Shown piece after piece: positions 10,235 to 54,761 of a stretch of 64,000 nt of DNA. The notes under the pieces are model-generated. The model was given only the letters and a program-made list of their open reading frames with translations. It did not search any database and was not told the DNA's origin. The stretch lies in the NCBI GenBank assembly GCA_963747935.1, contig CAVVGY010000010.1, positions 131,951 to 195,950 on the forward strand. Direction: 5' to 3'. Both the position numbers and the translations under genes were made by a program. Within the stretch, counting starts at the first letter, position 1. Every line of letters starts with the position of its first letter. Origin of the DNA: an uncultured Thermoleophilia bacterium (GTDB taxonomy: Bacteria > Actinomycetota > Thermoleophilia > UBA2241).

Positions 10235-10241
10235 GCGCTCC

Positions 10242-19835: not shown

Positions 19836-19952
19836 GAGCTCTGACTACAGGCCAAGGGACCGTCTGTCAAGGAAGTCGTTCCGTTAAGCGGTCGGCTCAT
19901 CCGCATCGTGGAACCCGTCAAGGAGCGCTGCCGCTTCTCTCCGCTCCCCGGC

Positions 19953-20062: not shown

Positions 20063-20073
20063 CGGCCGCCGCT

Positions 20074-20766
20074 TCACTCCTCCTTGCCGGTCCGGTCCGG
20101 AGGCGGGGTGATCGGCACGCGGTGGCGCTCGTCGAACGCCGCCGAGTGCGTGTAGCGGTAGAGCCGCGCGTAGAGCGGCGAGACGAGGCCGTTCAGGAGC
20201 GCCCAGCCGGCGAAGACGACCAGCAGCAGCGCCTGGGCGGCGAGCGGGGCGAGGCCGCCGGCGGCGGACGCAGCGCCTCCGCCGGCCCCTCCCTCGCCGC
20301 CGCCCTGCGCCAGCTGCGCGGCGAGCGCCAGAGCCAGCGAGGCGACGATGGCCATCCAGTAGTCGAGCGGCAGGCGCCAGAGCCAGCGGCCGTGCCACCA
20401 CACGTTGCCCGGCCGGAAGCGGCGCCAGCCGTAGGCCGGGTTGAGCAGGAACCAGAGGAAGTCCCAGATGGCGCTCCACGAGACCCAGGCGGCGAGCAAC
20501 GCCAGTTCCCTCGCCGCCGTCCACGGCGCGCCGAAGGCGAACGGCAGGTGGAAGAAGACCAGCGTCGCCGCGAACATCAGCAGGTTGTAGCCGGTGAGCG
20601 GCTTGCCGGCGAGCACCAGGCCGAAGAGGCGGGCCAGCGGCCCGCTCACCCGGTACGGGGTCGGCAGCTTCTCGGCCCAGCCGTAGGGCCCCTCGATCTC
20701 GATCTCGACGAGCGCGAGCACGAGGGCGAGGACGCAGAGCAGCGGCGCGGCGACGGCGAACGTCAC
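20074..20766 (-). CDS. Hypothetical Trp-rich integral membrane protein, co-directional with the upstream glycosyltransferase
   Basis: GTG start (VTFAVAAPLLCVLALVLALV…). Multiple transmembrane helices and a W-rich loop GWRRFRPGNVWWHGRWLWRLPLDYW. Confidence 0.4.
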   Translation of the reverse strand: MTFAVAAPLLCVLALVLALVEIEIEGPYGWAEKLPTPYRVSGPLARLFGLVLAGKPLTGYNLLMFAATLVFFHLPFAFGAPWTAARELALLAAWVSWSAIWDFLWFLLNPAYGWRRFRPGNVWWHGRWLWRLPLDYWMAIVASLALALAAQLAQGGGEGGAGGGAASAAGGLAPLAAQALLLVVFAGWALLNGLVSPLYARLYRYTHSAAFDERHRVPITPPPDRTGKEE

Positions 20767-20879
20767 GCCGGCGCCCCCGCGGCGGAGCCGGAGTCGCTGC
20801 GCGTGGCCCGGTGCGGCCTGCGCTTGCGCGCCGCTCCGGACTCCACGCGCGCGAGCTGCTCGCGCAGCGCGGCGAGCGC

Positions 20880-38711: not shown

Positions 38712-38903
38712 TGCTGTTGACGTTCCCCGCCGGGAGGAGGGCGGAACCAGCCTCCATCGCCGCCCCTCAGGCGCGATCTCAGCGGACGCGAAGAACTTGC
38801 CCGACCCCGACAAATGTTCTGGAGACTGTCACCGGGTGGTTGCCGATACTGGGAGTAGAGAAGACCCGGCGCGAGGGGCGCCGGCAGACATCGGGAGACT
38901 GGC

Positions 38904-39161
38904 ATGGCCGCCGATCGACAGACGTACAGCAGGTACCAGATCCTCTGCGCTGAGCGGGAGGCGTGGAACGACGGCGAGGCCGGCAGCGAGGGCTTCTACT
39001 ACGACGGCATCAGCTTCTGGCGGCGCGACGCCAAGGGCAAGGAGCGGCTGCTGCCCTCGTGGCGCACCCCGGCGCACGGCTGGCGCCACAGCGAGGGCTG
39101 CGACTGCGACCTCTGCACGGCGCACCGCCCGGCCGAGGTGCGGCCGCTCTCCGTGGCCTGA
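38904..39161 (+). CDS. Hypothetical small protein
   Basis: 85-aa ORF with a CDCDLC motif. No family recognised. Confidence 0.25.
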   Translation: MAADRQTYSRYQILCAEREAWNDGEAGSEGFYYDGISFWRRDAKGKERLLPSWRTPAHGWRHSEGCDCDLCTAHRPAEVRPLSVA

Positions 39162-39196
39162 GAAGCTGCAGCGGAGGACGCCCCTCGTCCTGAGAG

Positions 39197-40120
39197 CTAC
39201 TCGAGACGGACGCCGGCGCGCAGGCCGCTCTCCGCGGCCCACGCGCCGGCGTCCGTCTTCTTGCCTCCGGCCGGCTTGACGCGGGTCACCCGTAGGCGGC
39301 CGTCGGCGCACACCACGCTGAACCCGTCGCCGCCGACCTCCACGACCTCACCCATCGCGCCGCCGACCCCCGCGACGTCGCGCGCGTGCAGCGGCTCCGC
39401 GGCGAAGACCTGCAGCGTCTCGCCGCCGAGCGTCGTCCAGGCGCCCGGCGCCGGATCGCAGCCGCGCACCAGATCGTGGAGCTGCCGGCACGGCTTGCCC
39501 CAGTCGAGCCGCGCGTTGACCTTCTCGCACGGCGCCTCGTAGGTGGCCAGCGACTCGTCCTGAGGCACCCGCGGCGCCGTCCCGGCCTTGACCAGGTCCA
39601 CCGCTTCGACGACCGCTTCCACTCCCATCGGGAACAGGCGGTCGAAGTACACGGAGCCGAGCGTGTCGTTCGCGCCGATCGGCGTGCGCTTCTGCAGCAG
39701 GACGTCGCCGGTGTCGATGCCGCCGTCCGGCCAGAAGACGGTGAGGCCGGTCTCGGTCTCGCCCATGATGACCGGCCAGTTGATGGCGCTGCGCCCGCGG
39801 TGCCGCGGCAGGAGCGACGGGTGGTACTGGATGGTCCCGTGCGTGGGCGCCGCCAGGATCTCGGCCGGGACGATGAGCGTGACGAACGCCATCACCTGCA
39901 GGTCGGGGGCGAAGCCGCGGAACTCCTCGAGCACGGCGGGATCCTTGAACGAGGCCGGGCGGACGAGGGGGAGCCCGGCCTCCCCGGCGGCCTCGGCCAG
40001 CGGGTCCGGGCGGCCGGCCTCCGGCGGGGCGTACACGGCCACCACGTCCTCGCCCCGCTCGAGCAGCGCCTCGAGCACGGCCTTGCCGAAGGCCTGCTGG
40101 CCGTGCAGCACGATCCGCAT
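39197..40120 (-). CDS. Formyltransferase (Fmt-like)
   Basis: ATG at 40120 after GGAGGGA. MRIVLHGQQAFGKAVLEALL is Fmt-like, and the conserved HPSLLPRHRG motif is present. Confidence 0.65.
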   Translation of the reverse strand: MRIVLHGQQAFGKAVLEALLERGEDVVAVYAPPEAGRPDPLAEAAGEAGLPLVRPASFKDPAVLEEFRGFAPDLQVMAFVTLIVPAEILAAPTHGTIQYHPSLLPRHRGRSAINWPVIMGETETGLTVFWPDGGIDTGDVLLQKRTPIGANDTLGSVYFDRLFPMGVEAVVEAVDLVKAGTAPRVPQDESLATYEAPCEKVNARLDWGKPCRQLHDLVRGCDPAPGAWTTLGGETLQVFAAEPLHARDVAGVGGAMGEVVEVGGDGFSVVCADGRLRVTRVKPAGGKKTDAGAWAAESGLRAGVRLE

Positions 40121-40295
40121 GCGTCCCTCCTCGCCGGTCACGTCGGCCGCAAGGGCGGCGCCCGGCGGCAGGCAGCATGCTACCGCATCGCCTCCTCCCG
40201 TTGCCCCAGGCCGCCCTTCCCTGTTGCCAACTGCCATCGGCGCCCCGCCCCTCTCCACGTACGCCGCCGCTGCGGCGCCGCGGGAGGGGTACGCG

Positions 40296-40385
40296 CCTCC
40301 GGCGTGAGGCATGCACCTCCGGCGTTGGGTCCGCGCCGTCCAGCGTGAGTGCGCCCTCTCGGCGTGAGGTATGTCCCTCCCGCCT
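40296..40385. repeat. Imperfect 20-40-bp direct repeats (CCTCYSGGCGTGAGGYATG), three or four copies, abutting repeat A copy 4
   Basis: GCGCCTCCGGCGTGAGGCATGCA / CCTCCGGCGTTGGGTCC…CCAGCGTGAGTGCGC / CCTCTCGGCGTGAGGTATGTC. Confidence 0.45.
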
Positions 40386-40470
40386 GCGTACGTGCAAGCG
40401 TACGTCCAAACACCCCATGGGGCTTCTGGACGTACGCTTGGACGTACGTGTCCGAACAGGACATATGACC
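40366..40470. repeat. Repeat family A copy 4
   Basis: GAGGTATGTCCCTCCCGCCTGCGTACGTGCAAGCGTACGTCCAAACACCCCATGGGGCTTCTGGACGTACGCTTGGACGTACGTG. Confidence 0.7.
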
Positions 40471-40557
40471 GCGGGCGCCGTCGGCGCCGTGCGGGCCCCG
40501 GCGCGAGCCGGTACGGCGGAAGCCGGGGACGCGCGAACCGGGGCGGCCGGCGAAGCT

Positions 40558-41667
40558 CTAGAAGCGGCCGCCGATCCAGGCGCCGCTGATGGAGCCGTAC
40601 TGCACCACGGTGCCGGTGTGCGGCGCGTGGATCATGCTGCCGCCGCCGACGTAGATGCCGACGTGGTGGCTGTAGCTCGCATTGCCGAAGAACACGAGGT
40701 CACCGGGCTGCAGCGCGTTCAGCGGGACGGGCTTGCTGGCGCGCTGCTGGTCGGTGGCGCCATGCGAGAGGCCGATGCCGATCTGCGCGTAGCAGTACAT
40801 GGTGAGGCCGCTGCAGTCGAAGCCGCTCGGGCTGGCGCCGCCCCACACGTAGGGCACGCCGAGGTAGCGCTGGGCGATGGCCACGACGGCCGAGTGGCCG
40901 GAGCCGCCCGGGTCGACGACGGTGCCGCCGCCCCCGCCGCCGCCGGAACTCGACGACGAGCTGGAACCGCCGGAAGAGGAGGAGCCGGAGGAGGACGAGT
41001 TGTCCGCCACGGCGGCGGCTCTGGCGGCCTCCGCCTTGGCCTTGGCGGCCGCGGCGGCCTTGGCCTCCAGGTCCGCGATCTCACTCTTGAGCCCACCCGC
41101 GGTGCCCTCGAGCTGGGCCTGGAGCGAGAGCACCTGCTCCTTGCTCTTCTCGCGCTCGGCGACCAGCTTGGCCGCGGACTTGCGGTCGGCCTCCAGCGCG
41201 ATGCGCCGGTCGTCGATCTCCTGGCGGTACACGTCCGCGACGCGCGCGGTCCTGGCGTCGTTCTCCGTCATGCGCTGCATCACGTCGAGCTGGGTGAGCA
41301 GGTCGTCGAAGGTGCGGGAAGCGAAGATCACGTCGAGGATGCCGGCGCTGTCGGCCTTGTAGACCTGCTTGGCGCGCGCCGTGAGGTGGTCGTTGGCCAC
41401 CTCGAGCTTGTACTCGGCCACCTTGAGCAGGTGACTGGTGCGTACCGATGCGGTCCTGCACATCCTTGAGCCGCGAGGCGGCCGCGTTGTAGCGCTCCAC
41501 GGCCATGTCGGACTGCTCGTAGACCTTGCTGAGCTGCGCCTGCACGGCCGCCAGCCTGGCCTTCTTCGCGGCGATGGGTCCCGCCGACGCGACGGCGGAG
41601 CAGACGAGGAGCAGCGTGAGCGCTATGAGTACGGCGAACGTCGCCTTGCGGATGGGGGTCAAGCGGA
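40558..41667 (-). CDS. RipA-like secreted NlpC/P60 peptidase with a long coiled-coil and a Ser/Gly linker; apparent 1-nt indel near 41445
   Basis: TTG start after GAAGGAGG; signal peptide FAVLIALTLLLVCSAVASA; coiled-coil. C40 domain VPYVWGGASPSGFDCSGL…H. The N-terminal segment (41463..41667) is in another frame. Confidence 0.65.
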
Positions 41668-41813
41668 TCGCCTCCTTCGCGCCGGGTGACTCAGGGTCCT
41701 GGGCCCGGCGCCGGGCTTGAGCTTGCGACGGTAGCATCCGCCCGCCTCACCCGCAAACCGGTGAGCGTCAGGACCCTGCCGATCGTGCGTGGGGCGGGCG
41801 AGCATCGGCGTTG

Positions 41814-42212
41814 TCAGACCCGGTTGTAGAAGCCGGGCGTGCGCACGTCACTCTCCTCGTCGCCGGAGACCGCCACGTGGCTCGGCGTGAGCAGGATCAC
41901 GTCGCCGCCGACGTGCTGCAGGCTGCCACCGATCGCGTAGACGAGGCCGCTGGCGAAGTCCGTCAGGCGGCCGACGAGCGCGCGGTCGCAGCCCCCGAAG
42001 TCGATGAGCATGGAGGCGCCGTCGCGCATGCGGTCGGCGATGCGCTGCGCGACCTCGAAGTCCTCGGGCCGGATCAGCTCGAACGCCAGCGGCGCCGGCC
42101 GCACCAGCGCGAGCGACCGCGGCCCGGTGTCTTCGCGCCACCGCGGCTCCGCGTCGGCGTACGGCTCGTCATCGTCGTACCAGTCGTCGTAGGCGTCGCG
42201 CGCTGAGACCAT
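41814..42212 (-). CDS. sepF: Cell-division protein SepF
   Basis: ATG at 42212 after GGAGGAAG. The C-terminus has the SepF signature LIRPEDFEVAQRIADRMRDGASMLIDF…ILLTPSHVAV. Confidence 0.75.
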   Translation of the reverse strand: MVSARDAYDDWYDDDEPYADAEPRWREDTGPRSLALVRPAPLAFELIRPEDFEVAQRIADRMRDGASMLIDFGGCDRALVGRLTDFASGLVYAIGGSLQHVGGDVILLTPSHVAVSGDEESDVRTPGFYNRV

Positions 42213-42414
42213 GCTTCCTCCGGCTCTCGTCGGTCCTTCATCCCCTTTGCTTCGATGCGGCGGCGGCGTTCGCCTGCCTCGCCGCCGATGATGAGCAGGG
42301 AAGCCCAGCCCGGGTGGGGCGACGACGGCATCGCCCCGCGTACCAACGCCGACCACCGCCCAAGCCGCCGCCGAGGCGGGTACCCTGCGGACAGGCGAAC
42401 ACGAGGAGGCAGCC

Positions 42415-42828
42415 ATGACCGTCATCCCGCAGGAGCTCCACGACCTTCTGGCCGGGGGCCACAACGTCTGGGTCGCGACCGTCGGCCCCGACGGCACCCC
42501 CAACGTCTCGATCAAGGGCAGCGGCGCCCTCCTCGACGACGAGCACCTCTACTTCGCGGACATGTTCAGTCACAAGACGCGCGAGAACCTGGAGCACGAC
42601 CCCCGCGTGGCCGTCGGCATCCACGACCCGGAGCGCAAGGTCGCGATGCAGGTCAAGGGCCAGGCGGAGCTGATCGACCACGGTGAGGTGTTCGACCAGG
42701 TGAACGACAAGCTCAAGGCGATCAGCGAGCAGCTGCACCTGCCGCCGATGAAGTACGTGGTGAGGATCACCGTGGAATCGGTGTGGGACATGGGCCCCGG
42801 GCCGCACGCGGGAGAGCAGCTGGACTGA
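42415..42828 (+). CDS. Pyridoxamine-5'-phosphate-oxidase-like (split-barrel flavin-binding) protein
   Basis: 137 aa; WVATVGPDGTPNVSIKG…YFADMFSHKTRENL. Confidence 0.7.
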   Translation: MTVIPQELHDLLAGGHNVWVATVGPDGTPNVSIKGSGALLDDEHLYFADMFSHKTRENLEHDPRVAVGIHDPERKVAMQVKGQAELIDHGEVFDQVNDKLKAISEQLHLPPMKYVVRITVESVWDMGPGPHAGEQLD

Positions 42829-43603: not shown

Positions 43604-45148
43604 ATGACGACCTCCGCCCGCACATCCACCTGCGCCGCCGAACCCTCAGCCGCCTCTGCGGAACCCCTCGCCGCCGCTGCCGGACTTTCAGCCGGCCGGT
43701 CACGACCCTGGTCCAAGGGCGGGATCCGGGCGATCTCGAGGACCGCCTGGATCGAGATCGCCGTCGCCCTCATCTGCTTCGCCGTGCTGTGCGGCGCGGC
43801 GCTCACGCGCACGGTCACGCTGCTCGAGCCGGATGACTACGCCTATCGCGCCTCCATCGTGGCGCTCACCGAGGGCCACGTGATCCTCAGCGACGCGCAG
43901 TACCAGGACCTCGCGGAGCGCCTGCAGCAGCAGGACTCCGCGAGCGGGCTCAGCGGCAGCCGGGGGATCGCGCAGTGGACGCAACTTGACGACGGGAACT
44001 GGGTGAGCGAGAAGAACCCCGGCTACCCGTTCCTGGTCGCGCCGTTCGCGCTCGTTGGGCTGGAGCGGCTGGCGCCGCTGTTCTACGGCGGCCTCGGCTG
44101 CGTCGCGCTGTTCTTCGGCGGACGGCGCTGGCTGGGCGCCTGGGGCGGCACGTTCGCCGTCGGATTGTTCTGCTCGTCGGGCGCGGCGCTCGCGTTCGCG
44201 TGGCGCGCCTGGATGCCCACCTTCACCGGCGCCGCGCTCATCGCGGCCGGCGCCGGCGCCCTGCTCTGGGCGTTGCTCGCCGTCGACCGGCGGCCGCGGC
44301 TGCGGACGGCCGTCGGCCTGCTCGGGTTCCTCGCCCTCGAGGGCGCGATGCTCGTCCGCTACACGGACGCGATCGCGCTCGCCGTCGCCGCTGTGGCCGT
44401 GCTGGCCGTGTGGCGCTTCGTCCCCGGCCGGCTGCCCAAACGGGCGCTGATCTGGTGGCTCGGCTCGGCCGTGCTCGCCGGCGGGCTGGTGCTCGGCTGG
44501 GACGCGCTGGTCTACGGTTCAGTGACGGCGACCGGCTACGCGAGCGGCGTCATCACCTTCGGGCTCGGAGCGATCGGCGGCAACCTGGACCACATGCCCC
44601 TGCTGCTGGTGCAGACCATGCCGGCGTGCCTGCTCGCCCTCGCCGGCCTCGTCTGGCTGGTCGGGCGCAGCGTCTGGCTGCGGCGCACGGCGCCCGAGGA
44701 CGAAGTGCGCCCCTCCCGCGCCGCTGCCCACCGCGACCTCGCGGTCGCCGCGGCGCTCACCGCCGTCTGGTGGGGCACGTGGGCGCTCTACTTCACCTAC
44801 TACTGGACGGCGCAGATGAGCACCGGGCCGGGCGGCGCCGGCGGGCCCGGCGGCGGCGGGGCCGGCCCTGCCGGCGCGGACAACGCCATCCACCTCATCA
44901 GGTTCTTCGTCCCCGCGCTGGCGCCGATCGCCCTGCTGGGCGCCTGGGCGCTGGTGCGCGTGCCGCGCTGGGCAGCGCTCGCCGCCGTGGCCGGCTTCTT
45001 CGGCCTCGGGTTCTGGTCCTACGCGGACATGGCCTCTGCCGACCCTCGCGGAGGCATCATGGGCGGAATGCCCGGCGCGCCCGGCGGCACCCCACCCACC
45101 GGCATGCCGGTCCCGCAGGGGATGCCGACGCCGCCCGCTATGCAGTAG
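43604..45148 (+). CDS. Polytopic membrane protein (possible GT39/ArnT-like glycosyltransferase fold) with a Gly/Pro-rich C-terminus
   Basis: ATG at 43604. At least 10 predicted transmembrane helices and a DDYAYRASIVAL loop near the N-terminus. Confidence 0.4.
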   Translation: MTTSARTSTCAAEPSAASAEPLAAAAGLSAGRSRPWSKGGIRAISRTAWIEIAVALICFAVLCGAALTRTVTLLEPDDYAYRASIVALTEGHVILSDAQYQDLAERLQQQDSASGLSGSRGIAQWTQLDDGNWVSEKNPGYPFLVAPFALVGLERLAPLFYGGLGCVALFFGGRRWLGAWGGTFAVGLFCSSGAALAFAWRAWMPTFTGAALIAAGAGALLWALLAVDRRPRLRTAVGLLGFLALEGAMLVRYTDAIALAVAAVAVLAVWRFVPGRLPKRALIWWLGSAVLAGGLVLGWDALVYGSVTATGYASGVITFGLGAIGGNLDHMPLLLVQTMPACLLALAGLVWLVGRSVWLRRTAPEDEVRPSRAAAHRDLAVAAALTAVWWGTWALYFTYYWTAQMSTGPGGAGGPGGGGAGPAGADNAIHLIRFFVPALAPIALLGAWALVRVPRWAALAAVAGFFGLGFWSYADMASADPRGGIMGGMPGAPGGTPPTGMPVPQGMPTPPAMQ

Positions 45149-45239
45149 ACAGACGCCGCCGGCGGCGCTGGAAACCGGCGTGCGCCCCGGCCCTCTGTGG
45201 CTGGGGCAGGACCAGGAGGCGCAGGGGTGTATGCCGTCC

Positions 45240-45435
45240 GGGGGTCGGAGCCTTATCCGGAGCCTCTTGCGGCACCCCATGCGGTGCCACTTCCGGAGCC
45301 CCTTGTGGCACTCTATCCGGAGGCTTGTCCGGTGCCTCTTGTGGCACCACATGCGGCGCCACTTCCGGAGCCTCTTGCGACACCACATCCGGCGCCGCAG
45401 AGGGCTCCGGTTCGGGCTCCGACCCCCGGACACAC
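45240..45435. repeat. Repeat family B copy 3: MITE-like element with terminal inverted repeats (GGGGGTCGGAGCC … GGCTCCGACCCCC) and five internal tandem repeats of about 30 bp
   Basis: Internal unit CTTCCGGAGCCTCTTGYGGCACCMCATGCGGYGCCA repeated. The ends are reverse complements of each other. Confidence 0.65.
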
Positions 45436-45542
45436 ACCACCCCGCGGGCCGAGCGGCGCCAACGTCACCCAGGCGCGAGGGAGCAGGCGCCGGACAGCGT
45501 CACCCCAGCGCGCGAGGGAGCCGGCGGCGGACCGCTACGGCC

Positions 45543-46655
45543 TCAGGCGCAGCGCACCACGCCGCGCGCCCAGAGGCAGTCGCCGCAGGTGGGGTGCGGG
45601 TTGCCGAGACAGTCCTCTTCGTTGGTCTCGGCCAGTTCGCACCCGCAGTCGGTGCAGGGCGGGAAGTCGAAGCGCCGGACCCGGTCGCGGAACGCGACGT
45701 ACTCCGGCCCGGCCCAGACGGCGGCCAGAGACTCGGCCGGGAGCCTGCCCACCTCCCAGCGCACGATGCGCTTCTCGCGCCCGCGCACGTAGCAGGTGTA
45801 CGTGTGCAGCAGGGGCGGGCACGGGCTCACGCCGCCGTGCCAGGCCACCGCGCAGGCGTCCGCGTGCACGAACGGGCAGCGGGCGCGCGTGTCCTCCGGG
45901 TCGGCGCCGTGGAACGAGACCGGACCCGAGCGGGTCAGCGCCTTGCCCAGCGAGGCTCCGAGCTCCTCGTCCCAGTCGAACGCCGGCAGCTGCCAGCGGG
46001 CGCCGGCGGTGGTGTGGGCGCCGCTGGACGTGGACCCCTGGCGGTCGTAGAGCGTCTGGTCGAGCAGGTCCTCGGTGTAGGCGAGCACGTTGCTGACGAT
46101 GATGAACGTCGCGCCCAGTTGCGCGGCGAGCCGGCGCAGGCCGGGCAGCTCGCCGATGTTGGAGCGCATCGCCACGAACTCGACCCCGATGCGCACCGCG
46201 GAGCTGTAGTTGGGTCCGCGGTGGTCGTGCAGGCGGCGCACGTTCTCCACCACACGGGCCAGTGAGGCGCCGGAACGGACGCGGCCGAAGGCCTCGGCGG
46301 AGGCGCCGTCGATGCTCACGACGAGCTGGTCGAGCCCCGCCTCGAGCAGCGCTGCCGCCATCGCGTCGTCCAGCAGCAGCGCGTTGGTCGTGACCTCGGT
46401 CCGCAGCCCGCGCTCCTTGGCGAGCCGCACCATGTCCGGGAACCTGGGGTGCAGCAGCGGCTCCCCCAGCCCCATGAACGCGACCGTGCCGGGCCCGCCT
46501 TCGTCCGCCGGCCCGGCCACTCCGGCCACCACGGCCTCGAACGTCGCCCACTCCATGAAGCCCTCGGGCTCGTCCCACGCGTGGCGGATGCAGGTGGCGC
46601 AGGCGAGGTTGCAGGCGTTCGTCGGCTCGACGTAGACCTTGGCCGGCGCGGTCAC
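45543..46655 (-). CDS. Radical SAM enzyme with a C-terminal Cys-rich SPASM/twitch-like auxiliary-cluster domain
   Basis: CNLACATC (CxxxCxxC) at residues 15-22. The C-terminal cysteines are CPFVHADACAVAWHGGVSPC…CYVRG…CTDCGC…CGDCLWARGVVRC. Last gene of the arsP operon. Confidence 0.8.
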   Translation of the reverse strand: MTAPAKVYVEPTNACNLACATCIRHAWDEPEGFMEWATFEAVVAGVAGPADEGGPGTVAFMGLGEPLLHPRFPDMVRLAKERGLRTEVTTNALLLDDAMAAALLEAGLDQLVVSIDGASAEAFGRVRSGASLARVVENVRRLHDHRGPNYSSAVRIGVEFVAMRSNIGELPGLRRLAAQLGATFIIVSNVLAYTEDLLDQTLYDRQGSTSSGAHTTAGARWQLPAFDWDEELGASLGKALTRSGPVSFHGADPEDTRARCPFVHADACAVAWHGGVSPCPPLLHTYTCYVRGREKRIVRWEVGRLPAESLAAVWAGPEYVAFRDRVRRFDFPPCTDCGCELAETNEEDCLGNPHPTCGDCLWARGVVRCA

Positions 46656-47461
46656 AGGCCCATACCTGCGCAGATCGCGAGAAGCGCTTCGCGGAGGTCC
46701 TCACGGCCTCCCCCGAAGACCGGCGCGCAGTCTTGTGGATCCGCGTCACCGCGCCAGACGGCCCAGGCGAAAGCGTTGCAGGTCGCCTCGCCGCACTCCC
46801 CGCAGTTGCTGCCCGGCAGCCGCTTGAGGATCTCGAGCGCCGGCGGCCGCCGGCGCGCCTCGAACGAGGGCTCGATCTGCTCACGCCGCGCCCAGACCTC
46901 GTTCACCTGGCTGCGCAGCCGCTCGAGGCTGGCCCAGGCGTCGACGATGTCGTCGGCCTTGGCGATGCCCACCCTGTCGCGGAACAGCGACACCATCCGG
47001 TGGCCGTCCATGTAGGTGAGCACGGGGAGCTTGGCGGTGTACGACGCCTGGTGCAGCTCGGCGTTCAGATAGGGGAGCGCCTCGGCCGCGTCCCCCTCGA
47101 GGTGGGCGATGAGCCGCAGCTTCTCGGGGTCTGCCACGCAGGGCGCAAGGACGACGATGGCCATGCCGGGGATGAGCTCTTCCGGCGCGGGGATGAGCCC
47201 GTCCGCCGCGGAGGCGGGCGACTGCTCCGGCACGCTCCGCCGGGATGGTCTGTGCTCCACCCAGCCCGCGCCGACGAGCCCCGCGCCGCCGTTGTCCAGA
47301 TACTCGGCGCGCGCCTCCGCCGTCAGGACGAGGGCCGGGCACCCGACGCGCTCGTAGCCGGGGTCTGGAGAGACGACTTCGTACCCGATGCCGAGGCGGT
47401 CGAGAAGCTGCTGCGCCTTGGCCAGCTCACGCCGGTCCGTGAATGTCGTCAGCCAGTCCAC
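46652..47461 (-). CDS. Two-domain protein: N-terminal DUF3343-like domain (putative S/Se-carrier-like) plus a C-terminal CFeSP-type Fe-S cluster domain (LPGSNCGECGEATCNAFA)
   Basis: N-terminus FTDRRELAKAQQLLDRLGIGYEVVSPDPGYERVGCPALVL; C-terminus …RLPGSNCGECGEATCNAFAWAV…. Confidence 0.45.
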   Translation of the reverse strand: MDWLTTFTDRRELAKAQQLLDRLGIGYEVVSPDPGYERVGCPALVLTAEARAEYLDNGGAGLVGAGWVEHRPSRRSVPEQSPASAADGLIPAPEELIPGMAIVVLAPCVADPEKLRLIAHLEGDAAEALPYLNAELHQASYTAKLPVLTYMDGHRMVSLFRDRVGIAKADDIVDAWASLERLRSQVNEVWARREQIEPSFEARRRPPALEILKRLPGSNCGECGEATCNAFAWAVWRGDADPQDCAPVFGGGREDLREALLAICAGMGL

Positions 47462-47464
47462 GGC

Positions 47465-47701
47465 TCAGCTCGACGCCTGCGCCCTCATCCGGCGATAGTC
47501 CTCGAGCGACGGGAAGCTGATCGCCCCCTTCTCACAGAGGCCGGCGCAGTGCGAGCAGCCGGCGATGCAGGCGTCCTGGTGGACCACCTCGACCCTGTCG
47601 CCGGAGAAGCCGTACACGCCTTGCTGGCAGAACTCGAGGCAGGTGCGACAGCCGTCGCACAGCTCACTCTCGATCGTCGGGCCCCACACGAGCGTGCTCA
47701 T
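47465..47701 (-). CDS. Small 4Fe-4S dicluster ferredoxin-like protein
   Basis: 78 aa; CDGCRTCLEFC and CIAGCSHCAGLC. Confidence 0.6.
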   Translation of the reverse strand: MSTLVWGPTIESELCDGCRTCLEFCQQGVYGFSGDRVEVVHQDACIAGCSHCAGLCEKGAISFPSLEDYRRMRAQASS

Positions 47702-47716
47702 CGGAATCCCCCTCCT

Positions 47717-48343
47717 CTAGCAGCAGCAGGCGCCTGCCGCCGGGCGCTTGTTGGCGAAGTAGCGCGCCAGGTTCTCGGGCAACTCGACGAGCGGCTCCGG
47801 AGTGACGGGCGGCCGCTCGTCGACCTTGAGCAGCGCGTCCATGAGCGCCTCGACGAGAAGCGGTAGCGGCGCGGCGCTGTAGACCTCGCCCCGGTAGTGC
47901 CACTCGCGGCAGTCGACGCTCACGTCGCCGTCGGTCAGGTCGCCGCAAGACTCGCACTCGGACTCACGGATGTCCTGGTCGATGTCACGGCCGTTGACGC
48001 GGATGGTGGGCGAGGAGAGCAGCGCGCGCGCCTTGGCCTCGTCCGCGCTCTGGACGACCGTCTCGCGGTACGTGAGGCCGACGTCGAGAGCCTCGGCCGC
48101 CGCGGCGACGATCTCGATGGCCTCACGCAACTGCTCGCCGGTGGGCACGCAGCGCGCGCACGTGTCGAGGTCGATGACGAGCAACTCGATGTTGAGCCGC
48201 CGCCTCTGCGCGCTCGTACGCGCGGAGGGGGCGGCCGCGGCCTCAGCCGCGGGGGCGCCGCAGCAGCACGGCGAGGCGGAGGCGGACTGGTCGCCGCAGC
48301 AGGAGGACGCTGCGGGGCCGGAGGTCGTCGGGGCGTCAGTCAT
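47717..48343 (-). CDS. DUF2703-like thioredoxin-fold protein with Cys-cluster termini (N-terminal SSCCGDQSASASPCCCG, C-terminal AGACCC); candidate metalloid-binding protein
   Basis: Core LNIELLVIDLDTCARCVPTGEQL. There are 10 Cys in vicinal pairs or triplets at the two termini. Confidence 0.45.
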   Translation of the reverse strand: MTDAPTTSGPAASSCCGDQSASASPCCCGAPAAEAAAAPSARTSAQRRRLNIELLVIDLDTCARCVPTGEQLREAIEIVAAAAEALDVGLTYRETVVQSADEAKARALLSSPTIRVNGRDIDQDIRESECESCGDLTDGDVSVDCREWHYRGEVYSAAPLPLLVEALMDALLKVDERPPVTPEPLVELPENLARYFANKRPAAGACCC

Positions 48344-48393
48344 GCTGGTTCAGGCTCCTTCGGGTGGATGGAGATTGTGATCGGTAGCAGCGC

Positions 48394-49409
48394 TCAGCCG
48401 AGCACCAGGTTGAAGAGGTAGCCGACGAACACGATGCCGAGGCCCACGACGCCGAGGAACGTGAAGATGAGCGGCCACTTCAGCACCTTCTTGAGGATGA
48501 TCGTCTCGGGCAGCGAGAGAGCGATGACCGCCATCATGAAGGCGAGCACGGTGCCGAGGGCGGCGCCCTTCTCCAGCAGCGCCTCCACGATGGGGATGAT
48601 GCCCGCGGCGTTCGAGTACATGGGGATGCCGAGCAGGACCGCGAGCGGCACGCTCCACCAGGTGCCGGCGCCCATGATGCCGGCCATGAAGTCCTGCGGC
48701 ACGTAACCGTGGATGACGGCGCCGACGGCGATGCCCGCGAGCACCCAGGGCCAGACCCTGCCGACGATGTCCTTGACCGCCTGCCAAGCGTACTCACGCG
48801 GGCCGCCCAGGAGAGCTGCTCGCTCGCGGCGGCGGCCTCGCCCATCCTGATCTCGAGTACCCAGTCCTCGATGTAGCGCTCCATCTTCAGGCGCCCGATC
48901 ACCCAGCCGGCCACCATGGCGATGAGGAGGCCGGTCACGAGGTAGAGGGCGGCGACCTCCCAGCCGAAGAGCCCGTAGAGCAGCACCAGGGCGATCTCGT
49001 TGACCATGGGCGCGGCGATGAGGAACGAGAAGGTCACGCCGAGCGGGATGCCGGCCTCCACGAAGCCGATGAAGAGGGGGACCGCCGAGCAACTGCAGAA
49101 CGGTGTCACGATGCCGAGGCTCGCGGCCATCACGTTGCCGGTGGCCTCGCGCCGGCCGTGCAGGAGGGCGCGGGTGCGCTCCGGGCTGAAGAACGAGCGC
49201 ACCACACCGACGCCGAAGACCACCAGGGTGAGCAGAAGGAGCACCTTCACGCTGTCGTAGACGAAGAACTCGAGGGCGGATGCCCAACGGGTGTCCGGCA
49301 GCTGCAGGACGCCGTGGAACAGCCACACCGTGAAGGGCAGCCAGAAGTGGTAGACGACCGCCCAGAGGCCGACCCCGAGGACCAGGCGCAGCCACAGCGG
49401 CAGGCCCAT
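48394..49409 (-). CDS. arsP: ArsP-type (DUF318) permease, putative organoarsenical efflux; apparent frameshift near 48810
   Basis: The TPFCSCSAVP motif matches ArsP. The N-terminal half is in the 48534..49409 frame and the C-terminal half in the 48394..49587 frame. Confidence 0.65.
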
Positions 49410-49656
49410 CCAGAGGCGGACCGCGGCGGGCGCCAGCCGCGGCGGCGGCCTCGTCCGCGGGGGCGACGGGCGCGCCGGTCGAGCAGGCGCAGGCGGGCAG
49501 GGTCGACGTTGCTCTCCCTGCAGTCGCCGGCTCCCCCACTTCAGTGCTGGGGGCGACCTCGATGACCTGCTCGCTCATGTTGCTCAACTCCCCGCGCTCG
49601 TCGGACCCGCGAAGCCCGTGATCAGGGGTGTTGCAGCCAGCTCACGCTGCAGTCGC

Positions 49657-50343
49657 TCATAGTCGTAGGGGACGCGCACGAACTCGACGAAGTCCGGTGT
49701 CGCCGAGCCGCGCCGGGTCGACGACGGCGTAGCAGACGCGCCAGTCGCCGTCCTTGGGGCGGCCGCCGCTGCCGACGTTGACGAAGACCGTCTCGCCGAC
49801 CGGGCGCGCGTAGGGCACGTGCGTGTGCCCGAAGAAGATGGCCGGGTAGGGGTACTCATCGGCCATGCGCGCCATGGCCTTCTCCGGCCGGTCCTCGAAG
49901 AGGTACTCGTTGATGCGCCGTGGGCTGCCGTGGACGGCGAGCAGGTCGCCTGCGGGCGTGGCGAGCGTGAAGTGGTCCTCGAGCGTGCGCAGATACGCCT
50001 TGACCTCGGCGGTCACCACCTCCTGCGTCCACTCCAACGACACGGCCCCCTCGGCGCGCTGCTCGTCGGTCTTGTAGACGCAGCCGCAGTCGCCGGTCTC
50101 GAAGCCGATGCCCTGGTCGTAGTTGCCCATGAGGCTGGGGATGCCGCGGTCGCGGACGAGCAGTGCGACCTCGTTGGGCGAAGGGCCGTAGCCGACCAGA
50201 TCGCCTAGAGAGATCGTCTGCGGCACGCTTCGTTGTTCGATGTCGGCGAGGATGGCCTCGAGCCCGGGCAGGTTGCCGTGCACGTCGCTGAAGAGGGCGA
50301 ACGGGGTCTCGAGCGTGAGCGTCCTCAACTGCGGTCCTTTCAT
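49657..50343 (-). CDS. Calcineurin-like metallophosphoesterase
   Basis: FSDVHGN, GDLVGYG and GNYD motifs. Confidence 0.8.
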   Translation of the reverse strand: MKGPQLRTLTLETPFALFSDVHGNLPGLEAILADIEQRSVPQTISLGDLVGYGPSPNEVALLVRDRGIPSLMGNYDQGIGFETGDCGCVYKTDEQRAEGAVSLEWTQEVVTAEVKAYLRTLEDHFTLATPAGDLLAVHGSPRRINEYLFEDRPEKAMARMADEYPYPAIFFGHTHVPYARPVGETVFVNVGSGGRPKDGDWRVCYAVVDPARLGDTGLRRVRARPLRL

Positions 50344-50364
50344 CGACTGCCGTTTATATCAATA

Positions 50365-50402
50365 CTCTTGACCATAAACCTACGTCGATGTAAGGTCAAG
50401 AG
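50365..50402. promoter_or_regulatory. Perfect 9-bp inverted repeat CTCTTGACC-N20-GGTCAAGAG in the AT-rich divergent promoter region upstream of acr3; candidate ArsR operator
   Basis: It lies between the divergently transcribed metallophosphoesterase gene (start 50343) and acr3 (start 50442). It contains a TTGACC -35-like hexamer. Confidence 0.4.
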
Positions 50403-50441
50403 GCGCCGCTGTGAACCCCCGTCGACTTAGGAGAATCGAGC

Positions 50442-51566
50442 ATGGCTGAAGGCACGATGAGGAGATTGTCCTTCCTCGACCGCTACCTCACCCTCTGGAT
50501 CTTCCTCGCCATGGCCGTCGGCGTGGCCGTCGGCTGGGCGTTCGTCAGCGTGCCGGAGTTCATCGACAGGTGGACGGTGGGCACGACCAACATCCCCATC
50601 GCCATCGGCCTCATCATCATGATGTATCCGCCGCTGGCGAAGGTGCGCTACGAGGAGCTCGGCGACGTCTTCAAGGACTACAGGATCCTCGGCCTCAGCC
50701 TCGTGCAGAACTGGCTCATCGGCCCATTCGTGATGTTCTTCCTGGCGATCATCTTCCTGCACAACTACCCGGAGTACATGGTCGGGCTCATCATGATGGG
50801 CCTCGCGCGCTGCATCGCCATGGTGATCGTCTGGAACCAGCTGGCGAAGGGCGACACCGAGTACGCCGCAGGCCTCGTCGCCTTCAACAGCATCTTCCAG
50901 GTGCTGTTCTACAGCGTGTTCGCCTGGATCTTCGTCACCAAGCTGCCGCCGCTCTTCGGGCTCGAGGGCGCGACGGTGGACGTCTCCATCGGCCAGATCG
51001 CCAAGAGCGTCGCCATCTACCTCGGCATCCCGTTCGTGGCCGGCATGATCACGCGCTACGTCGGCCTGAAGGTCAAAGGGCGGGAGTGGTACGAGCAGAA
51101 GTTCATCCCGCGCATCAGCCCGCTCACGCTCATCGCCCTGCTGTTCACGATCTTCGTGATGTTCAGCCTCAAGGGCGACCTCATCGTGCAGTTGCCGCTC
51201 GACGTCGTGCGCATCGCCATCCCGCTCGCCATCTACTTCGCGATCATGTTCTTCGTGAGCTTCTACATGGGCCGGCGCATCGGCGCCGACTACTCCAAGA
51301 CCGCGACCCTGAGCTTCACCGCGGCGAGCAACAACTTCGAGCTGGCCATCGCGGTCGCCATCGCCACCTTCGGCCTGAACTCGGGCGAGGCGTTCGCCAC
51401 CGTGATCGGCCCGCTGGTCGAGGTGCCGGTGCTGATCGGCCTCGTGAGCGTCTCCCTGTGGTTCGGGCGCAAGTACTGGGGCGTCACGGATGAACCGGTG
51501 CCGGCCGCCGTGGCGGCGGGGTGCGACGAGGTGGGCTGCGACCCGATTCGCGGAAGGGAGACCTGA
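50442..51566 (+). CDS. acr3: Arsenite efflux transporter ACR3
   Basis: 374 aa with conserved Acr3 architecture and motifs ([13 protein letters not shown]…, [11 protein letters not shown]). Confidence 0.9.
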
Positions 51567-51943
51567 TGGCGATGCAAGCTGTCCGCAAGGGGACCATCGA
51601 AGACTACGTGCCGCTGTTCAAGGCACTGTGCAACTCCACCAGGGCGCAGATCATGGAGTTCCTTCTCAGCGGCGAACGCTGCGTGTGCGAGATGACCGGT
51701 CCGCTGGACCTGAGCCAGCCGCTGGTCTCGCACCACCTGGGCCTGCTCCGCGACGCCGGGCTGGTGAACATGCGCGACGAGGGCGCCCGCACGTACTACT
51801 CGATCAACGAGGAGCGGTTCGACGCGGATCTCCAGGGGTTCGTCGCCCATGTGGATCGTCTGCGCAACACGCCGCGGCCGGCGCTCGACCCGGCGTCGGC
51901 CTGCGCCACACCGGTCGTCAGGCCCGGCAAGAAGTCCGCCTAG
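51566..51943 (+). CDS. arsR: ArsR/SmtB-family metalloregulator
   Basis: The ATG overlaps the acr3 stop (TGATG). Metal-binding ERCVCEM motif and HTH LSQPLVSHHLGLLRDAGLV. Confidence 0.8.
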   Translation: MAMQAVRKGTIEDYVPLFKALCNSTRAQIMEFLLSGERCVCEMTGPLDLSQPLVSHHLGLLRDAGLVNMRDEGARTYYSINEERFDADLQGFVAHVDRLRNTPRPALDPASACATPVVRPGKKSA

Positions 51944-51969
51944 CAAATCCGCGTCACAAGGAGACATCA

Positions 51970-52224
51970 ATGAAGCTCGAGATCCTCGGCTCCGGCTGCG
52001 CCAACTGCAAGAAGCTTGAGGCGATCACGAACGAGGCGGTCGCCGACCTCGCCATCGGCGACGTAGAGGTCGTGAAGGTCACCGACATGAAGGACATCAT
52101 GGGGTACGGCATCATGTCGACGCCGGGCCTCGTCATCGACGGCAAGGTCGTCTCCAGCGGTCGCGTGCCGTCCAAGGCCGAGGTAGCCTCGATGATCACG
52201 ACCGAGCTGGCCGCCCGGGGATGA
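51970..52224 (+). CDS. Small thioredoxin-fold redox-active disulfide protein (TM0996/MTH895-like, GCANC motif)
   Basis: 84 aa; MKLEILGSGCANCKKLE…. Confidence 0.6.
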   Translation: MKLEILGSGCANCKKLEAITNEAVADLAIGDVEVVKVTDMKDIMGYGIMSTPGLVIDGKVVSSGRVPSKAEVASMITTELAARG

Positions 52225-52232
52225 TCTGCGGA

Positions 52233-52662
52233 ATGCCGCAGAGCGGGCTCTTCTGTTTGGCTCTCACCGCCGTGCTGATCGCGGCGGCCAGCCTTGGCGG
52301 GCTGCGGCGGATCGAGCGCCGAGAGCGGCTCGGCGGCTGCACCGGCTGTGGGCGACAGTCCCGCAGCCAAGCCCAAGGTGACGTTTATCGAGCTCGGCGC
52401 CGACAGTTGCGTCCCCTGCAAAGAGATGAAGCCCGTCATGAAGGGCATCGAGCTGGCGTTCGGCGACCAGGTCGAGGTGATCTTCTACGACGTCTGGGAG
52501 GACCCGGCGCCGGCCAACGAGTACGGCATCCAGATGATCCCCACGCAGATCTTCCTCGACGAGAAGGGCGAAGAGTTCCACCGGCACACGGGCTTCTACC
52601 CTCAGGCCGACATCGAGGCGCTCCTGGTGGAGCAGGGCCTCACCAAGGCCACCACGCAGTAG
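52233..52662 (+). CDS. TlpA/ResA-like thioredoxin lipoprotein (CVPC active site); apparent frameshift near 52285
   Basis: Signal peptide and lipobox (…IAAAS/LAGCGG). Thioredoxin motif SCVPC. Confidence 0.55.
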
Positions 52663-52668
52663 CGCGCG

Positions 52669-53361
52669 GTGCTCGAGCAGATCCTCACCAGCCTGAGCAA
52701 CGGCCTCGACCAGTCGCTCGGCTGGGCGCTGCTGGCGGCGTTCGCGTGGGGCGTCGTGAGCATCGTCTTCAGCCCCTGCCACCTGGCCAGCGTGCCGCTC
52801 ATCGTCGGCTTCATCTCCACCCAGGAAGACGCCTCGACCAGGCGCGCGTTCCGGCTCTCGCTCCTGTTCGCGCTGGGCGTGCTCGCCTCCATCGCGGTGA
52901 TCGGCGTGGTCACCTGGTCGATCGGCAGGCTGCTCGGCGACCTCGGGTCTGTCGGGAACATTGCGGTCGCCGTCGTCTTCTTCGTCTTCGGCCTCTACCT
53001 CATGGGGCTGCTGCCGCTCAACTGGAACGTCTTCCCCAAGACGACGAGGCGGCGCGGCGCTCCTGCGGCGGTGGGACTCGGGCTCGCGTTCGGCGTCGGC
53101 CTCGGCCCCTGCTCGTTCGCCTTCCTGGCGCCGCTCCTCATGATCGTCTTCGGCAGCGCGAGCACCCACTACCTGTTGGCGGTCGGCCTCCTGGCGGCCT
53201 TCGCAGCGGGGCACTGCGGCGTCATCGTAGCCGCCGGCACCGCTGCGCAGAAGGTGCAGGACTGGGCGGTGTGGGGCGATCGCTCGGGCGTGACGCGGTG
53301 GGTGCGGCGCGTCAGCGGAGCGCTGGTCGTGCTCGCCGGCGTCTATCTGCTCGCGACGTAG
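52669..53361 (+). CDS. ccdA: CcdA/DsbD-family transmembrane thiol-disulfide exchanger
   Basis: GTG start. Six predicted transmembrane helices with conserved Cys in helices 1 and 4 (SPCHLASVP, GLGPCSFAF). Confidence 0.75.
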   Translation: MLEQILTSLSNGLDQSLGWALLAAFAWGVVSIVFSPCHLASVPLIVGFISTQEDASTRRAFRLSLLFALGVLASIAVIGVVTWSIGRLLGDLGSVGNIAVAVVFFVFGLYLMGLLPLNWNVFPKTTRRRGAPAAVGLGLAFGVGLGPCSFAFLAPLLMIVFGSASTHYLLAVGLLAAFAAGHCGVIVAAGTAAQKVQDWAVWGDRSGVTRWVRRVSGALVVLAGVYLLAT

Positions 53362-53369
53362 CTGGGTGA

Positions 53370-53814
53370 TCAGCCGGCGGAGTCGGGCGGTACGTTGATG
53401 ATCACGCCGAAGGCGCGCAGCGTGTCCGCCACCTCGCTGTTCACCGAGTAGAACGTCCATTTGCCGCGGGTCTCCTCGACGACCAGACCCGCGTCCTTGA
53501 GCACGCGCAGGTGGTACGACGCCTTGGACTGCGCGAGCCCGAACTGCTCCTGGAACTCGCAGACGCAGAGCCCCGAGGGGTCGCCCGCGCCGGGCACACC
53601 CGCGCTCCGCGGGGTCGATGAGGCCGCAGCAGCCGCGGCCCTGCGTCATGACGTCCAGCATGCCGAGGCGGATGGGGTCGGAGAGCGCCTTCGCGACCCT
53701 GGCGAGGCGCGCCAGGGTCTCGGGGTCCGTGCGCGTGCAGCAGACGGCCTCCGCCACCGGCGGCGCGCACGCCGCACTCTTCTTGTCCGTTCTTGGTGGC
53801 CATGACCGGACCAT
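53370..53814 (-). CDS. Second ArsR-family regulator with extra N-terminal Cys pairs (…CC…, CCG…, LCVCEF); apparent frameshift near 53600
   Basis: ATG at 53814 (MVRSWPP…AVCCTRTDPETLARLARVAKALSDPIRLGMLDV…CCGLIDP). The C-terminal half, in another frame, is LCVCEFQEQFGLAQSKASYHLRVLKDAGLV. Confidence 0.6.
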
Positions 53815-53830
53815 AGCACAAGAAATCTTG

Positions 53831-53878
53831 ATTTGGTATTGACAAGGCCGCTGGCAGCGCCTACATTGATACCAACAA
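53831..53878. promoter_or_regulatory. AT-rich divergent arsR2/arsM promoter region with imperfect inverted repeat TTGGTATTGACAA-N18-TTGATACCAACAA and two TTGACA -35-like hexamers
   Basis: A local GC drop (about 40% against a 70%+ background) in the intergenic region 53815..53913. Confidence 0.4.
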
Positions 53879-53913
53879 AAGTTGATTTGACATCGTCGAC
53901 CAGGGAGCCCGTG

Positions 53914-54761
53914 ATGAGTGAGACCAAGGACCAGGAACTCAAAGGTCAGATCCGCGACCACTACGCCGAGCGCGCCGTGGCGGCCAAGGACGCCACGGCG
54001 CCGGTGAGCTGCTGCGGTCCGTCGAGCACGAGCAGTTGCTGCGGCGGCCAGGCCGTCGAGGCGCAGGACGAGTTCGCGCGCGGCCTCTACGACGTCTCCG
54101 AGACCGGCGACCTCCCCGACGGCGCCGTGCTCGCCAGCCTCGGTTGCGGCAACCCGACGGCGCTCGCCGACCTGCAGCGCCGGCGAGGTCGTGCTCGACC
54201 TCGGCAGCGGCGGCGGCATCGACGTCCTGCTGTCCGCCAGGCGCGTCGGCCCCACCGGCAAGGCCTACGGCCTCGACATGACCGACGAGATGCTCGCCCT
54301 GGCCCGCGAGAACCAGGCCAAGGCCGGCGTGACCAACGTCGAGTTCCTCAAGGGTGAGATCGAGGACATCCCGCTGCCGGACGACTCGGTGGACGTGATC
54401 ATCAGCAACTGCGTCATCAACCTGTCGGTCGACAAGGACAAGGTGCTGGCGGAGGCCTATCGGGTGCTCAAGCCCGGCGGGCGGTTCGCGGTCTCGGACA
54501 TCGTGTTCCAGGGCGACGTGAGCCTCATCCCCGAGCACATCTTGCGCAGCATCGAGTCGTGGTCCGGCTGCGTCGCCGGAGCGCTCGAGGAGCAGGACTA
54601 CCTGGACAAGCTGCGGCGCGCCGGCTTCGCCGACGCCGCGATCGAGGTGACGCAGGTGTACGACGAGCGTGCCGGACGGATGCGGCGTCGACCTGAGCGA
54701 GATCCCGGACGGCATCCGCGTGGTGAGCGGGTTCGTGCGCGCGACCAAGCCGGCGAGCTGA
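53914..54761 (+). CDS. arsM: Arsenite S-adenosylmethionine methyltransferase ArsM; two apparent frameshifts (about 54180 and 54665)
   Basis: N-terminal [15 protein letters not shown] Cys pairs; SAM-binding [12 protein letters not shown]; C-terminus …[28 protein letters not shown]. It spans three frames. Confidence 0.7.

Follow-up and report, generated by a model that had tools for sequence, protein, structure and literature searches.

What a radical S-adenosylmethionine (SAM) enzyme does inside an arsenic-resistance island is the question raised by a 64,000 nt-long stretch of DNA (referred to, at its full length, as the window; G+C 71%) from an uncultured Thermoleophilia bacterium (assembly GCA_963747935.1, contig CAVVGY010000010.1, positions 131,951 to 195,950). 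A preliminary description, made from the sequence alone, had noticed between positions 45543 and 49409 five co-directional minus-strand genes, encoding an ArsP-type permease, a DUF2703-like Cys-cluster protein, a ferredoxin, an Fe-S protein and a radical SAM enzyme with a SPASM domain, and had proposed that they formed a module either for organoarsenical chemistry or for the maturation of the Cys-cluster protein. We considered the region as an accessory arm of an arsenic-resistance island in the genome of this soil actinobacterium. The reading that we favour, tentatively and with somewhat less than an even chance, is that the radical SAM enzyme is under ArsR control, draws electrons from the ferredoxin and acts on a trivalent arsenical.

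Domain calls were made by Pfam and NCBIfam profile searches of the window proteins. We collected 84 loci around homologues of the radical SAM enzyme (L001, L004 and so on), on which the island genes were placed by tblastn. The counts for Thermoleophilia refer to 37 non-redundant loci, with 62-91% identity, and co-occurrence was counted within 10 kb of the radical SAM gene. The closest relatives of the window were uncultured Thermoleophilia metagenome-assembled genomes, many of them from the long-read 'MFD' series. The tree of the radical SAM enzymes is a rough neighbour-joining tree.

The ferredoxin and radical SAM pair in arsenic-resistance loci

The radical SAM gene (45543..46655, minus strand) encodes a protein of 370 aa that matches PF04055 with 69 bits (cut-off 29.5) and the SPASM domain PF13186 with 37.8 bits (cut-off 21.5), in agreement with the radical SAM enzyme with a SPASM-like C-terminus first described. 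In the alignment, the CX3CX2C motif at C15/C19/C22 and nine C-terminal Cys are all invariant. Homologues at E ≤ 1e-30 amounted to 275 representatives among 1.84 billion proteins, and a profile search of solved structures returned only distant radical SAM matches (BlsE, Tes, DesII, BtrN, PqqE and anSME).

The ferredoxin gene (47465..47701, minus strand) encodes 78 aa with eight Cys spaced as CxxCxxCxxxC ... CxxxCxxCxxxC. Its matches to Fer4-family Pfam profiles are weak; among the NCBIfam models it matches those of the HgcB and PorD ferredoxins, with an HgcB-like similarity of 36 bits. On the grounds of the two cluster motifs and of the weak Fer4-family matches, we kept its assignment as a 2x[4Fe-4S] ferredoxin. 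The proteins of 83-87 aa encoded upstream of the radical SAM gene in the Thermoleophilia loci are clear orthologues of it.

At least one ars gene of any kind was found near the radical SAM gene in 32 of the 37 Thermoleophilia loci, and in 29 of them the ferredoxin gene was directly upstream of it. Both arsM and a PF03773 permease were present in 20 loci each and the Fe-S protein in 13. The commonest layout consists of arsR2, ferredoxin and radical SAM enzyme, divergent from arsM; further layouts are metallophosphoesterase-acr3-ferredoxin-radical SAM, arsP-DUF2703-ferredoxin-radical SAM, metallophosphoesterase-Fe-S protein-radical SAM, and CcdA-radical SAM. The exact gene order of the window was found only in near relatives, namely in L085 (93.6% nucleotide identity), where the order of the six operon genes described below is intact, and on a 3.2-kb JGI contig, where DUF2703 protein, ferredoxin, Fe-S protein and radical SAM enzyme follow each other in the same way. 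Because of this, the conserved unit is the ferredoxin and radical SAM pair inside an ars island and not the five-gene set; the other three genes shuffle, and the five genes can no longer be regarded as a conserved module.

The co-occurrence with ars loci on which the earlier proposal depended extends to Syntrophaceae, Anaerolineae, Chloroflexia and a spirochaete. In the tree, the window's enzyme forms a clade with those of two Syntrophaceae loci (L033, L066) and of one Anaerolineae locus (L030), all of them in ars contexts and without an N-terminal extension. Precisely, L066 carries a co-directional operon with arsR, a thioredoxin (Trx), TauE, DGC/Trx, CcdA, an arsC of the LMW-PTP type, acr3, a Trx-domain membrane protein, a PF03773 permease (266 bits) and the radical SAM gene. 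The spirochaete locus (L057) has arsR beside a PF03773 permease, Trx, arsC and the radical SAM gene. Among the Anaerolineae, the radical SAM gene is followed by the permease in L030 and by Trx and the permease in L046, and tblastn matches to arsR and arsM fell within 0.7 kb on its 3′ side in L035, where no clean open reading frame (ORF) was called. Ferredoxin and metallophosphoesterase are absent from the Syntrophaceae and spirochaete operons.

A PF03773 permease therefore adjoins the radical SAM gene in four lineages (Thermoleophilia, Anaerolineae, Syntrophaceae and spirochaete), and this adjacency is the strongest hint that the substrate or the product of the enzyme crosses the membrane through the permease. 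Since relatives of the enzyme stand in the ars operons of several phyla, it probably does arsenic chemistry.

As a side observation, in the Anaerolineales ars locus L046 a GcvH-like lipoyl-carrier protein and two DGC-domain proteins are encoded ahead of the radical SAM gene (7762-9382). Lipoyl dithiols are classic targets of arsenite.

Family placement of the radical SAM enzyme

The nearest curated families were TIGR04317 ('tungsten cofactor oxidoreductase radical SAM maturase') and TIGR04311 ('putative metalloenzyme maturase'), which are both only predicted maturases. They are homologous to the window's enzyme over the full length and share all twelve cluster Cys with it, and the scores were 287 bits on TIGR04317 and 254 bits on TIGR04311, under the respective cut-offs of 380 and 400. 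Eight other homologues, either ars-linked or not, scored 280-367 bits on TIGR04317. The enzyme of L055, considered as a control linked to an aldehyde:ferredoxin oxidoreductase (AOR), passed with 422 bits; its gene follows an ORF read by eye as the C-terminus of an AOR and a Pfam-confirmed ThiS/MoaD-like gene. Unlike this genuine member, the window's enzyme is below the cut-off and has no AOR or molybdenum/tungsten (Mo/W) gene nearby, and no AOR-family gene was found in the island (45.5-54.8 kb). It is not a member of a housekeeping maturase family; of the outcomes named as refuting the first proposal, neither this one nor a lack of co-occurrence with ars loci was seen, which favours an arsenic link.

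The enzyme also lacks the AbrB/MazE-like N-terminal extension of many relatives. This domain (SpoVT, about 50 residues) was found in the distant homologues of L035, L038, L042, L046, L048-L054 and L057, with a PF04014 match of 24.4 bits for the L046 protein (9836-11095), and it is missing from the window's clade. Of the Cys, C288 alone is confined to two sister clades, one of which is the window's.

These family relations bear on the main rival explanation, in which the enzyme serves to mature or repair a protein or cofactor and, under arsenic stress, makes or restores a metal or thiol centre poisoned by arsenite. Its target could be a Cys-dependent ars protein (the CxC metallophosphoesterase of the operon, for example), an Fe-S site or a molybdopterin dithiolene. 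We regard this as possible and, on balance, unlikely. In its favour, proteins or peptides are common substrates of SPASM enzymes, the NCBIfam models matched best are those of predicted metalloenzyme maturases, and all the conserved Cys of the enzyme are common to the family outside ars loci. Moreover, L055 has the order AOR-MoaD-radical SAM and passes the TIGR04317 cut-off, L042 (Anaerolineae) has Fe-S protein, ferredoxin, XdhC, SufC, SufBD, radical SAM enzyme and Fe-S protein, with a further radical SAM gene after them, and L035 carries two xanthine-dehydrogenase-family genes and a MogA-like gene directly 5′ of the radical SAM gene. On the other hand, no Mo/W enzyme or cofactor gene was found in the window's island or in the searched Thermoleophilia loci, and the window's clade is apart from the Mo/W-linked clades in the tree. 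The only constant protein partner is the ferredoxin, and the metallophosphoesterase does not occur in the Syntrophaceae and spirochaete operons. If the enzyme were a maturase instead, it would point to an undescribed arsenic-specific step of repair or maturation.

The L042 locus was also looked at in its own right. Between 219 and 11095 it holds two radical SAM/SPASM paralogues, two PF04060 proteins and a ferredoxin-domain protein amid XdhC, SufC-like, SufBD-like and Trx-domain genes, and downstream an ORF of the twin-arginine type that is molybdoenzyme-like by eye, without a domain scan. It looks like a cluster for the maturation of a metallocofactor.

Several observations weigh against an enzyme acting on a trivalent arsenical. 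No diagnostic arsenic-binding residue was recognised in it, all nine C-terminal Cys being common to the TIGR04317 member outside an ars locus, and its AlphaFold2 (AF2) model is poor (pLDDT 52). Some distant paralogues fused to AbrB/MazE stand beside Mo/W enzymes and cofactor genes, and others (L047-L054) have no recognisable or conserved neighbours. Three Thermoleophilia loci keep the ferredoxin and radical SAM pair with no ars gene in the available flanks, which were 10 kb in L010 and L032 and about 6 kb in L024. Furthermore, much of the synteny within Thermoleophilia is inherited and is therefore not independent evidence.

A further explanation is that the pair has no dedicated arsenic function and is a resident that borders a hot spot in which ars genes accumulate. 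In many Thermoleophilia loci the pair is in fact at a fixed chromosomal place by bPH_2/DUF429/hisG, and it is at this conserved site near hisG that L010 and L032 keep it without ars genes. We consider such a fortuitous linkage improbable. The window and L085 have the pair elsewhere, inside the permease operon and with a 4-bp overlap of start and stop codons, at least four operon layouts keep it among ars genes, and the membership of ars operons is independent in Syntrophaceae, Anaerolineae, Chloroflexia and the spirochaete.

Operon structure, accessory proteins and flanking genes

The five genes are tightly packed, as had been noticed, with gaps of -4 bp between the radical SAM and Fe-S protein genes, 3 bp between the Fe-S protein and ferredoxin genes, 15 bp between the ferredoxin and DUF2703 genes and 50 bp between the DUF2703 and permease genes; the 4-bp overlap joins the stop codon of the Fe-S protein to the start codon of the radical SAM enzyme (GTGA). 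The metallophosphoesterase gene (49584..50343, minus strand), previously listed as a mere neighbour, ends 5 nt ahead of the permease ATG and for this reason is the first gene of a six-gene operon.

Upstream of it lies an AT-rich region (50344..50441) that separates the operon from the divergent acr3 gene. The only sigma-70-like site between 45 and 51 kb was found here, at 50399-50371 on the minus strand and upstream of the metallophosphoesterase gene. It is overlapped by a near-perfect palindrome (50365-50402) with arms of 19 nt (CTCTTGACCATAAACCTAC / GTCGATGTAAGGTCAAGAG), which we infer to be a candidate ArsR operator; through it, the whole operon would be under ArsR control.

The metallophosphoesterase matches PF12850/PF00149 and has a CxC pair (C86/C88). 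With this fold and this pair, it is a candidate arsenate reductase of the Car1 type, the comparison being made by described features.

The permease gene (48394..49578, minus strand) is interrupted by two frameshifts, and PF03773 was matched by both of its fragments (147 and 117.5 bits). The TPFCSCS motif is present, as had been reported together with an ArsP identity. The family and the motif were recovered; the identity as ArsP does not follow from them. In fact, the CSC motif is common to the whole PF03773 family, SO_0444 and SaoE included (bioRxiv 10.1101/2022.07.06.499078), therefore it does not identify ArsP and the substrate cannot be read from it. The permease scored under the SaoE, SO_0444 and 'arsenic_eff' NCBIfam cut-offs. 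An arsenical as its substrate would be argued by the ars context only, the motif being shared with Cu/Zn and SaoE transporters.

The next gene (47717..48343, minus strand) encodes a DUF2703 protein of 208 aa that matches PF10865 with 76 bits (cut-off 23.6). It carries SSCCGDQSASASPCCCG at the N-terminus, GACCC at the C-terminus and internal CxxC motifs, and both terminal Cys clusters are conserved in the L007 and L019 orthologues, so that the thioredoxin-fold protein with Cys clusters at both termini was recovered as described. The sole appearance of DUF2703 in the searched literature was in an ars cluster of Rhodococcus, as a gene induced by arsenate.

Because SPASM enzymes often cross-link Cys-rich peptides, we also weighed whether the radical SAM enzyme matures an adjacent Cys-rich protein, either the DUF2703 protein or the 8-Cys 'ferredoxin', by a cross-linking like that of ribosomally synthesised and post-translationally modified peptides, with an arsenic-binding product. 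Both proteins are encoded just upstream of it in the window, and the 8-Cys protein is its one constant neighbour and has borderline Fer4 Pfam scores. DUF2703, however, was near the radical SAM gene in only 3 of the 37 Thermoleophilia loci, besides the window's near relatives, and in none of the other phyla, which tells against the maturation of the DUF2703 protein that had been put forward. The 8-Cys protein, for its part, has the spacing of a two-cluster ferredoxin, matches the HgcB/PorD models and does not occur in the operons of the Syntrophaceae and the spirochaete. We consider this explanation very improbable.

Between the ferredoxin and the radical SAM enzyme, a gene (46652..47461, minus strand) encodes an Fe-S protein of 269 aa and three domains. 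PF04060 was matched by residues 215-247 with 51 bits and with the pattern Cx2Cx4Cx16C, and C220, C223, C228 and C245 are invariant. Of the fusion previously suggested, the Fe-S domain was thus found; the DUF3343-like domain was not, as there was no Pfam match to PF11823 even at E ≤ 1. The AF2 model (pLDDT 78.7, above 90 over residues 1-80 and 100-200, with a poor C-terminal Fe-S domain) shows a predicted ferredoxin-like domain at the N-terminus (residues 1-70) and a predicted TBP-like domain in the middle. The modelled fold of residues 1-70 is compatible with DUF3343 and not diagnostic of it. At JGI, the family carries the label 'ArsR family metal-binding transcriptional regulator'; a look-up by exact sequence gave no entry for the window's protein.

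The flanking ars genes were found as described. On the plus strand, acr3 (50442-51566; TIGR00832, 462 bits) is followed by arsR1 (51566-51943), Trx3 (51970-52224), a TlpA-like Trx (Trx2; 52294-52662) and CcdA/DsbD (52669-53361); tblastn with the L001 proteins gave 70-86% identity over these genes (50442..53361). The frameshifted arsR2 (53370..53814, minus strand) was recognised from tblastn matches in two frames, and arsM (53914..54761, plus strand), with two frameshifts, from tblastn and from a three-frame translation compared with the ArsM of L001.

The two regulators differ in sequence. ArsR2 (53370-53814 in the window, 7348-7776 in L001) has N-terminal CC pairs and an insertion of about 20 residues (…GRxCCGLxDPxERGVPG…) just ahead of the classical CVC arsenite-binding motif, and ArsR1 has neither. 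A methylarsenite-selective ArsR2 was considered and rejected, as the classical CVC motif is retained.

Six single-base frameshifts were counted within about 6 kb. In the permease they are near 49421 and 48793, where a tblastn search with the intact L001 protein switches frame. The ORF at 48534-49409, from which the gene was first described, is only the middle of it; another frame holds both the N-terminus, which begins with the ATG at 49578 and has the PxCxC motif seen in relatives, and the C-terminus, which reaches 48394. The others are near 49700 in the metallophosphoesterase, the two frames of which together match the protein of a relative, near 53598 in arsR2, and near 54180 and 54670 in arsM. 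The other four genes of the module and acr3 have none. Permease, metallophosphoesterase, arsR2 and arsM are intact in L085, in which acr3 is broken instead, and several other MFD loci also have fragmented genes; for these reasons the frameshifts are probably indels of the long-read assembly and not signs of gene decay. True pseudogenes for the permease and arsM were rejected likewise, the frameshifts not being common to L085, with its broken acr3.

Some further observations concern the surroundings of the island. The G+C content is 0.64-0.68 over 50001-54000 (acr3, arsR, Trx and CcdA) and 0.70-0.75 in the flanks, which is compatible with a horizontal origin of these genes. Past the radical SAM end of the island, the L085 genes (16052-20789) encode a PNPOx-like protein, SepF, an NlpC/P60 protein, a formyltransferase and a 2-hydroxyacid dehydrogenase. 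The ORFs at 37671-42828 of the window resemble this set by eye, without a domain scan; if they are the same set, the two genomes carry the island at one and the same chromosomal site. The search for plasmids carrying the module and the Rfam and tRNA scans of the window gave no match.

Just 3′ of the radical SAM stop codon, the convergent intergenic region contains tandem repeats at 45246-45396 (36 nt x 3.9, or 72 nt x 2.1) and at 45448-45532 (37 nt x 2.4). A minus-strand ORF (45138-45440) that overlaps them would encode a repetitive Pro/Glu/Ala-rich peptide. We rejected it as a substrate of the radical SAM enzyme, as its G+C content at third codon positions is 0.67, compared with 0.90-0.96 in the module genes, and as it was not seen at other loci.

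Proposed mechanism and comparison with known systems

In the favoured reading, an enzyme acting on a trivalent arsenical, the metallophosphoesterase would reduce arsenate to As(III) and the DUF2703 protein, as a positional substitute for ArsD, would carry the arsenic as a thiolate on its Cys clusters. The 2x[4Fe-4S] ferredoxin would reduce the radical SAM cluster of the enzyme, and the PF04060 protein may take part in the delivery of electrons or, possibly, in sensing. The radical SAM enzyme itself would work with three clusters. In a reaction that needs no oxygen, its SAM-derived radical would transform the trivalent arsenical, and a C-As bond would be either formed, as by ArsS and ArsL, or cleaved. 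Its substrate or its product would be moved by the permease, for instance through the export of a trivalent arsenical. Of the two functions first proposed, the biosynthesis or transformation of organoarsenicals would be the chemistry in this reading.

ArsI and ArsH, which detoxify methylarsenite, need oxygen. With its place in the ars operons of several phyla, the radical SAM enzyme is a concrete candidate for carbon-arsenic chemistry that needs no oxygen, and the route by which anaerobes and soil bacteria cleave or transform methylated arsenic bears on the straighthead disease of rice and on the mobility of arsenic in flooded soils. If the reading holds, a small and so far uncharacterised SPASM subfamily would also gain its first link to a function.

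The accessory proteins resemble known ones in part. Car1 of Rufibacter tibetensis is, according to PMC12124457, an arsenate reductase of the metallophosphoesterase type in ars operons, for which Cys74 and Cys76 are reported essential; the window's protein resembles it in family, in ars-operon context and in having a CxC pair.

ArsD is an arsenic metallochaperone with a thioredoxin-like fold and vicinal Cys. The DUF2703 protein shares with it this fold, the vicinal Cys and the slot after the permease, which in L004 is held by an ArsD, and it may be an arsenic chaperone as well. In contrast to ArsD, it belongs to PF10865 and not to PF06953, and no ArsA ATPase is present.

ArsP, the permease for methylarsenite (MAs(III)) efflux of Campylobacter, has in common with the window's permease the PF03773 domain, the CSC motif and the context of an ars operon. 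The window's permease, however, is frameshifted in the assembly and below the SaoE and SO_0444 cut-offs. The SAO organometallic system was considered as the same thing and rejected, as only the permease family is in common and SAO has no radical SAM component.

In the searched literature, judged for the most part by titles and abstracts, we found no description of such a radical SAM enzyme in ars islands, those of arsenic clusters being only ArsS and ArsL, and in this sense the system is, as first suggested, undescribed. ArsS (Synechocystis, arsenosugar synthesis; TIGR04167, a radical SAM domain with DUF3641) is likewise a radical SAM enzyme, its gene adjoins arsM and, in the summary given by PMC8552651, it works on a trivalent arsenical made by ArsM. 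The window's enzyme differs from it by the SPASM C-terminus, by a dedicated ferredoxin and by having no Pfam match to DUF3641 (E ≤ 0.01); the ArsS model was not among the best 25 of its 53 NCBIfam matches, the lowest of those listed being at about 35 bits.

ArsL (Burkholderia gladioli, arsinothricin synthesis) is an ars-operon radical SAM enzyme that forms a C-As bond with As(III), is encoded next to arsM in the arsQML cluster and acts with ArsM in organoarsenical synthesis; it has 428 aa, of which residues 194-201 hold the CX3CX2C motif, and no more than three of its Cys are conserved (PMC8552651). As for the window's enzyme, its operon holds arsM and a permease. ArsL, however, has a single cluster, whereas the window's enzyme has 370 aa, the motif at residues 15-22 and twelve conserved Cys, and the ArsL permease is the GntP-like ArsQ, whereas that of the window belongs to PF03773 and no GntP-type arsQ is present.

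Judged by models, domains and published descriptions, the enzyme is therefore neither ArsS-like nor ArsL-like. A bolder proposal, which we find rather doubtful, is that the window's clade is a third, SPASM-type class of arsenic-dedicated radical SAM enzymes after ArsS and ArsL, making or breaking C-As bonds without oxygen and with a ferredoxin of its own. Concretely, such a class could be the anaerobic equivalent of ArsI, the C-As lyase that depends on O2, or it could provide a way to an exported organoarsenical that does without ArsM.

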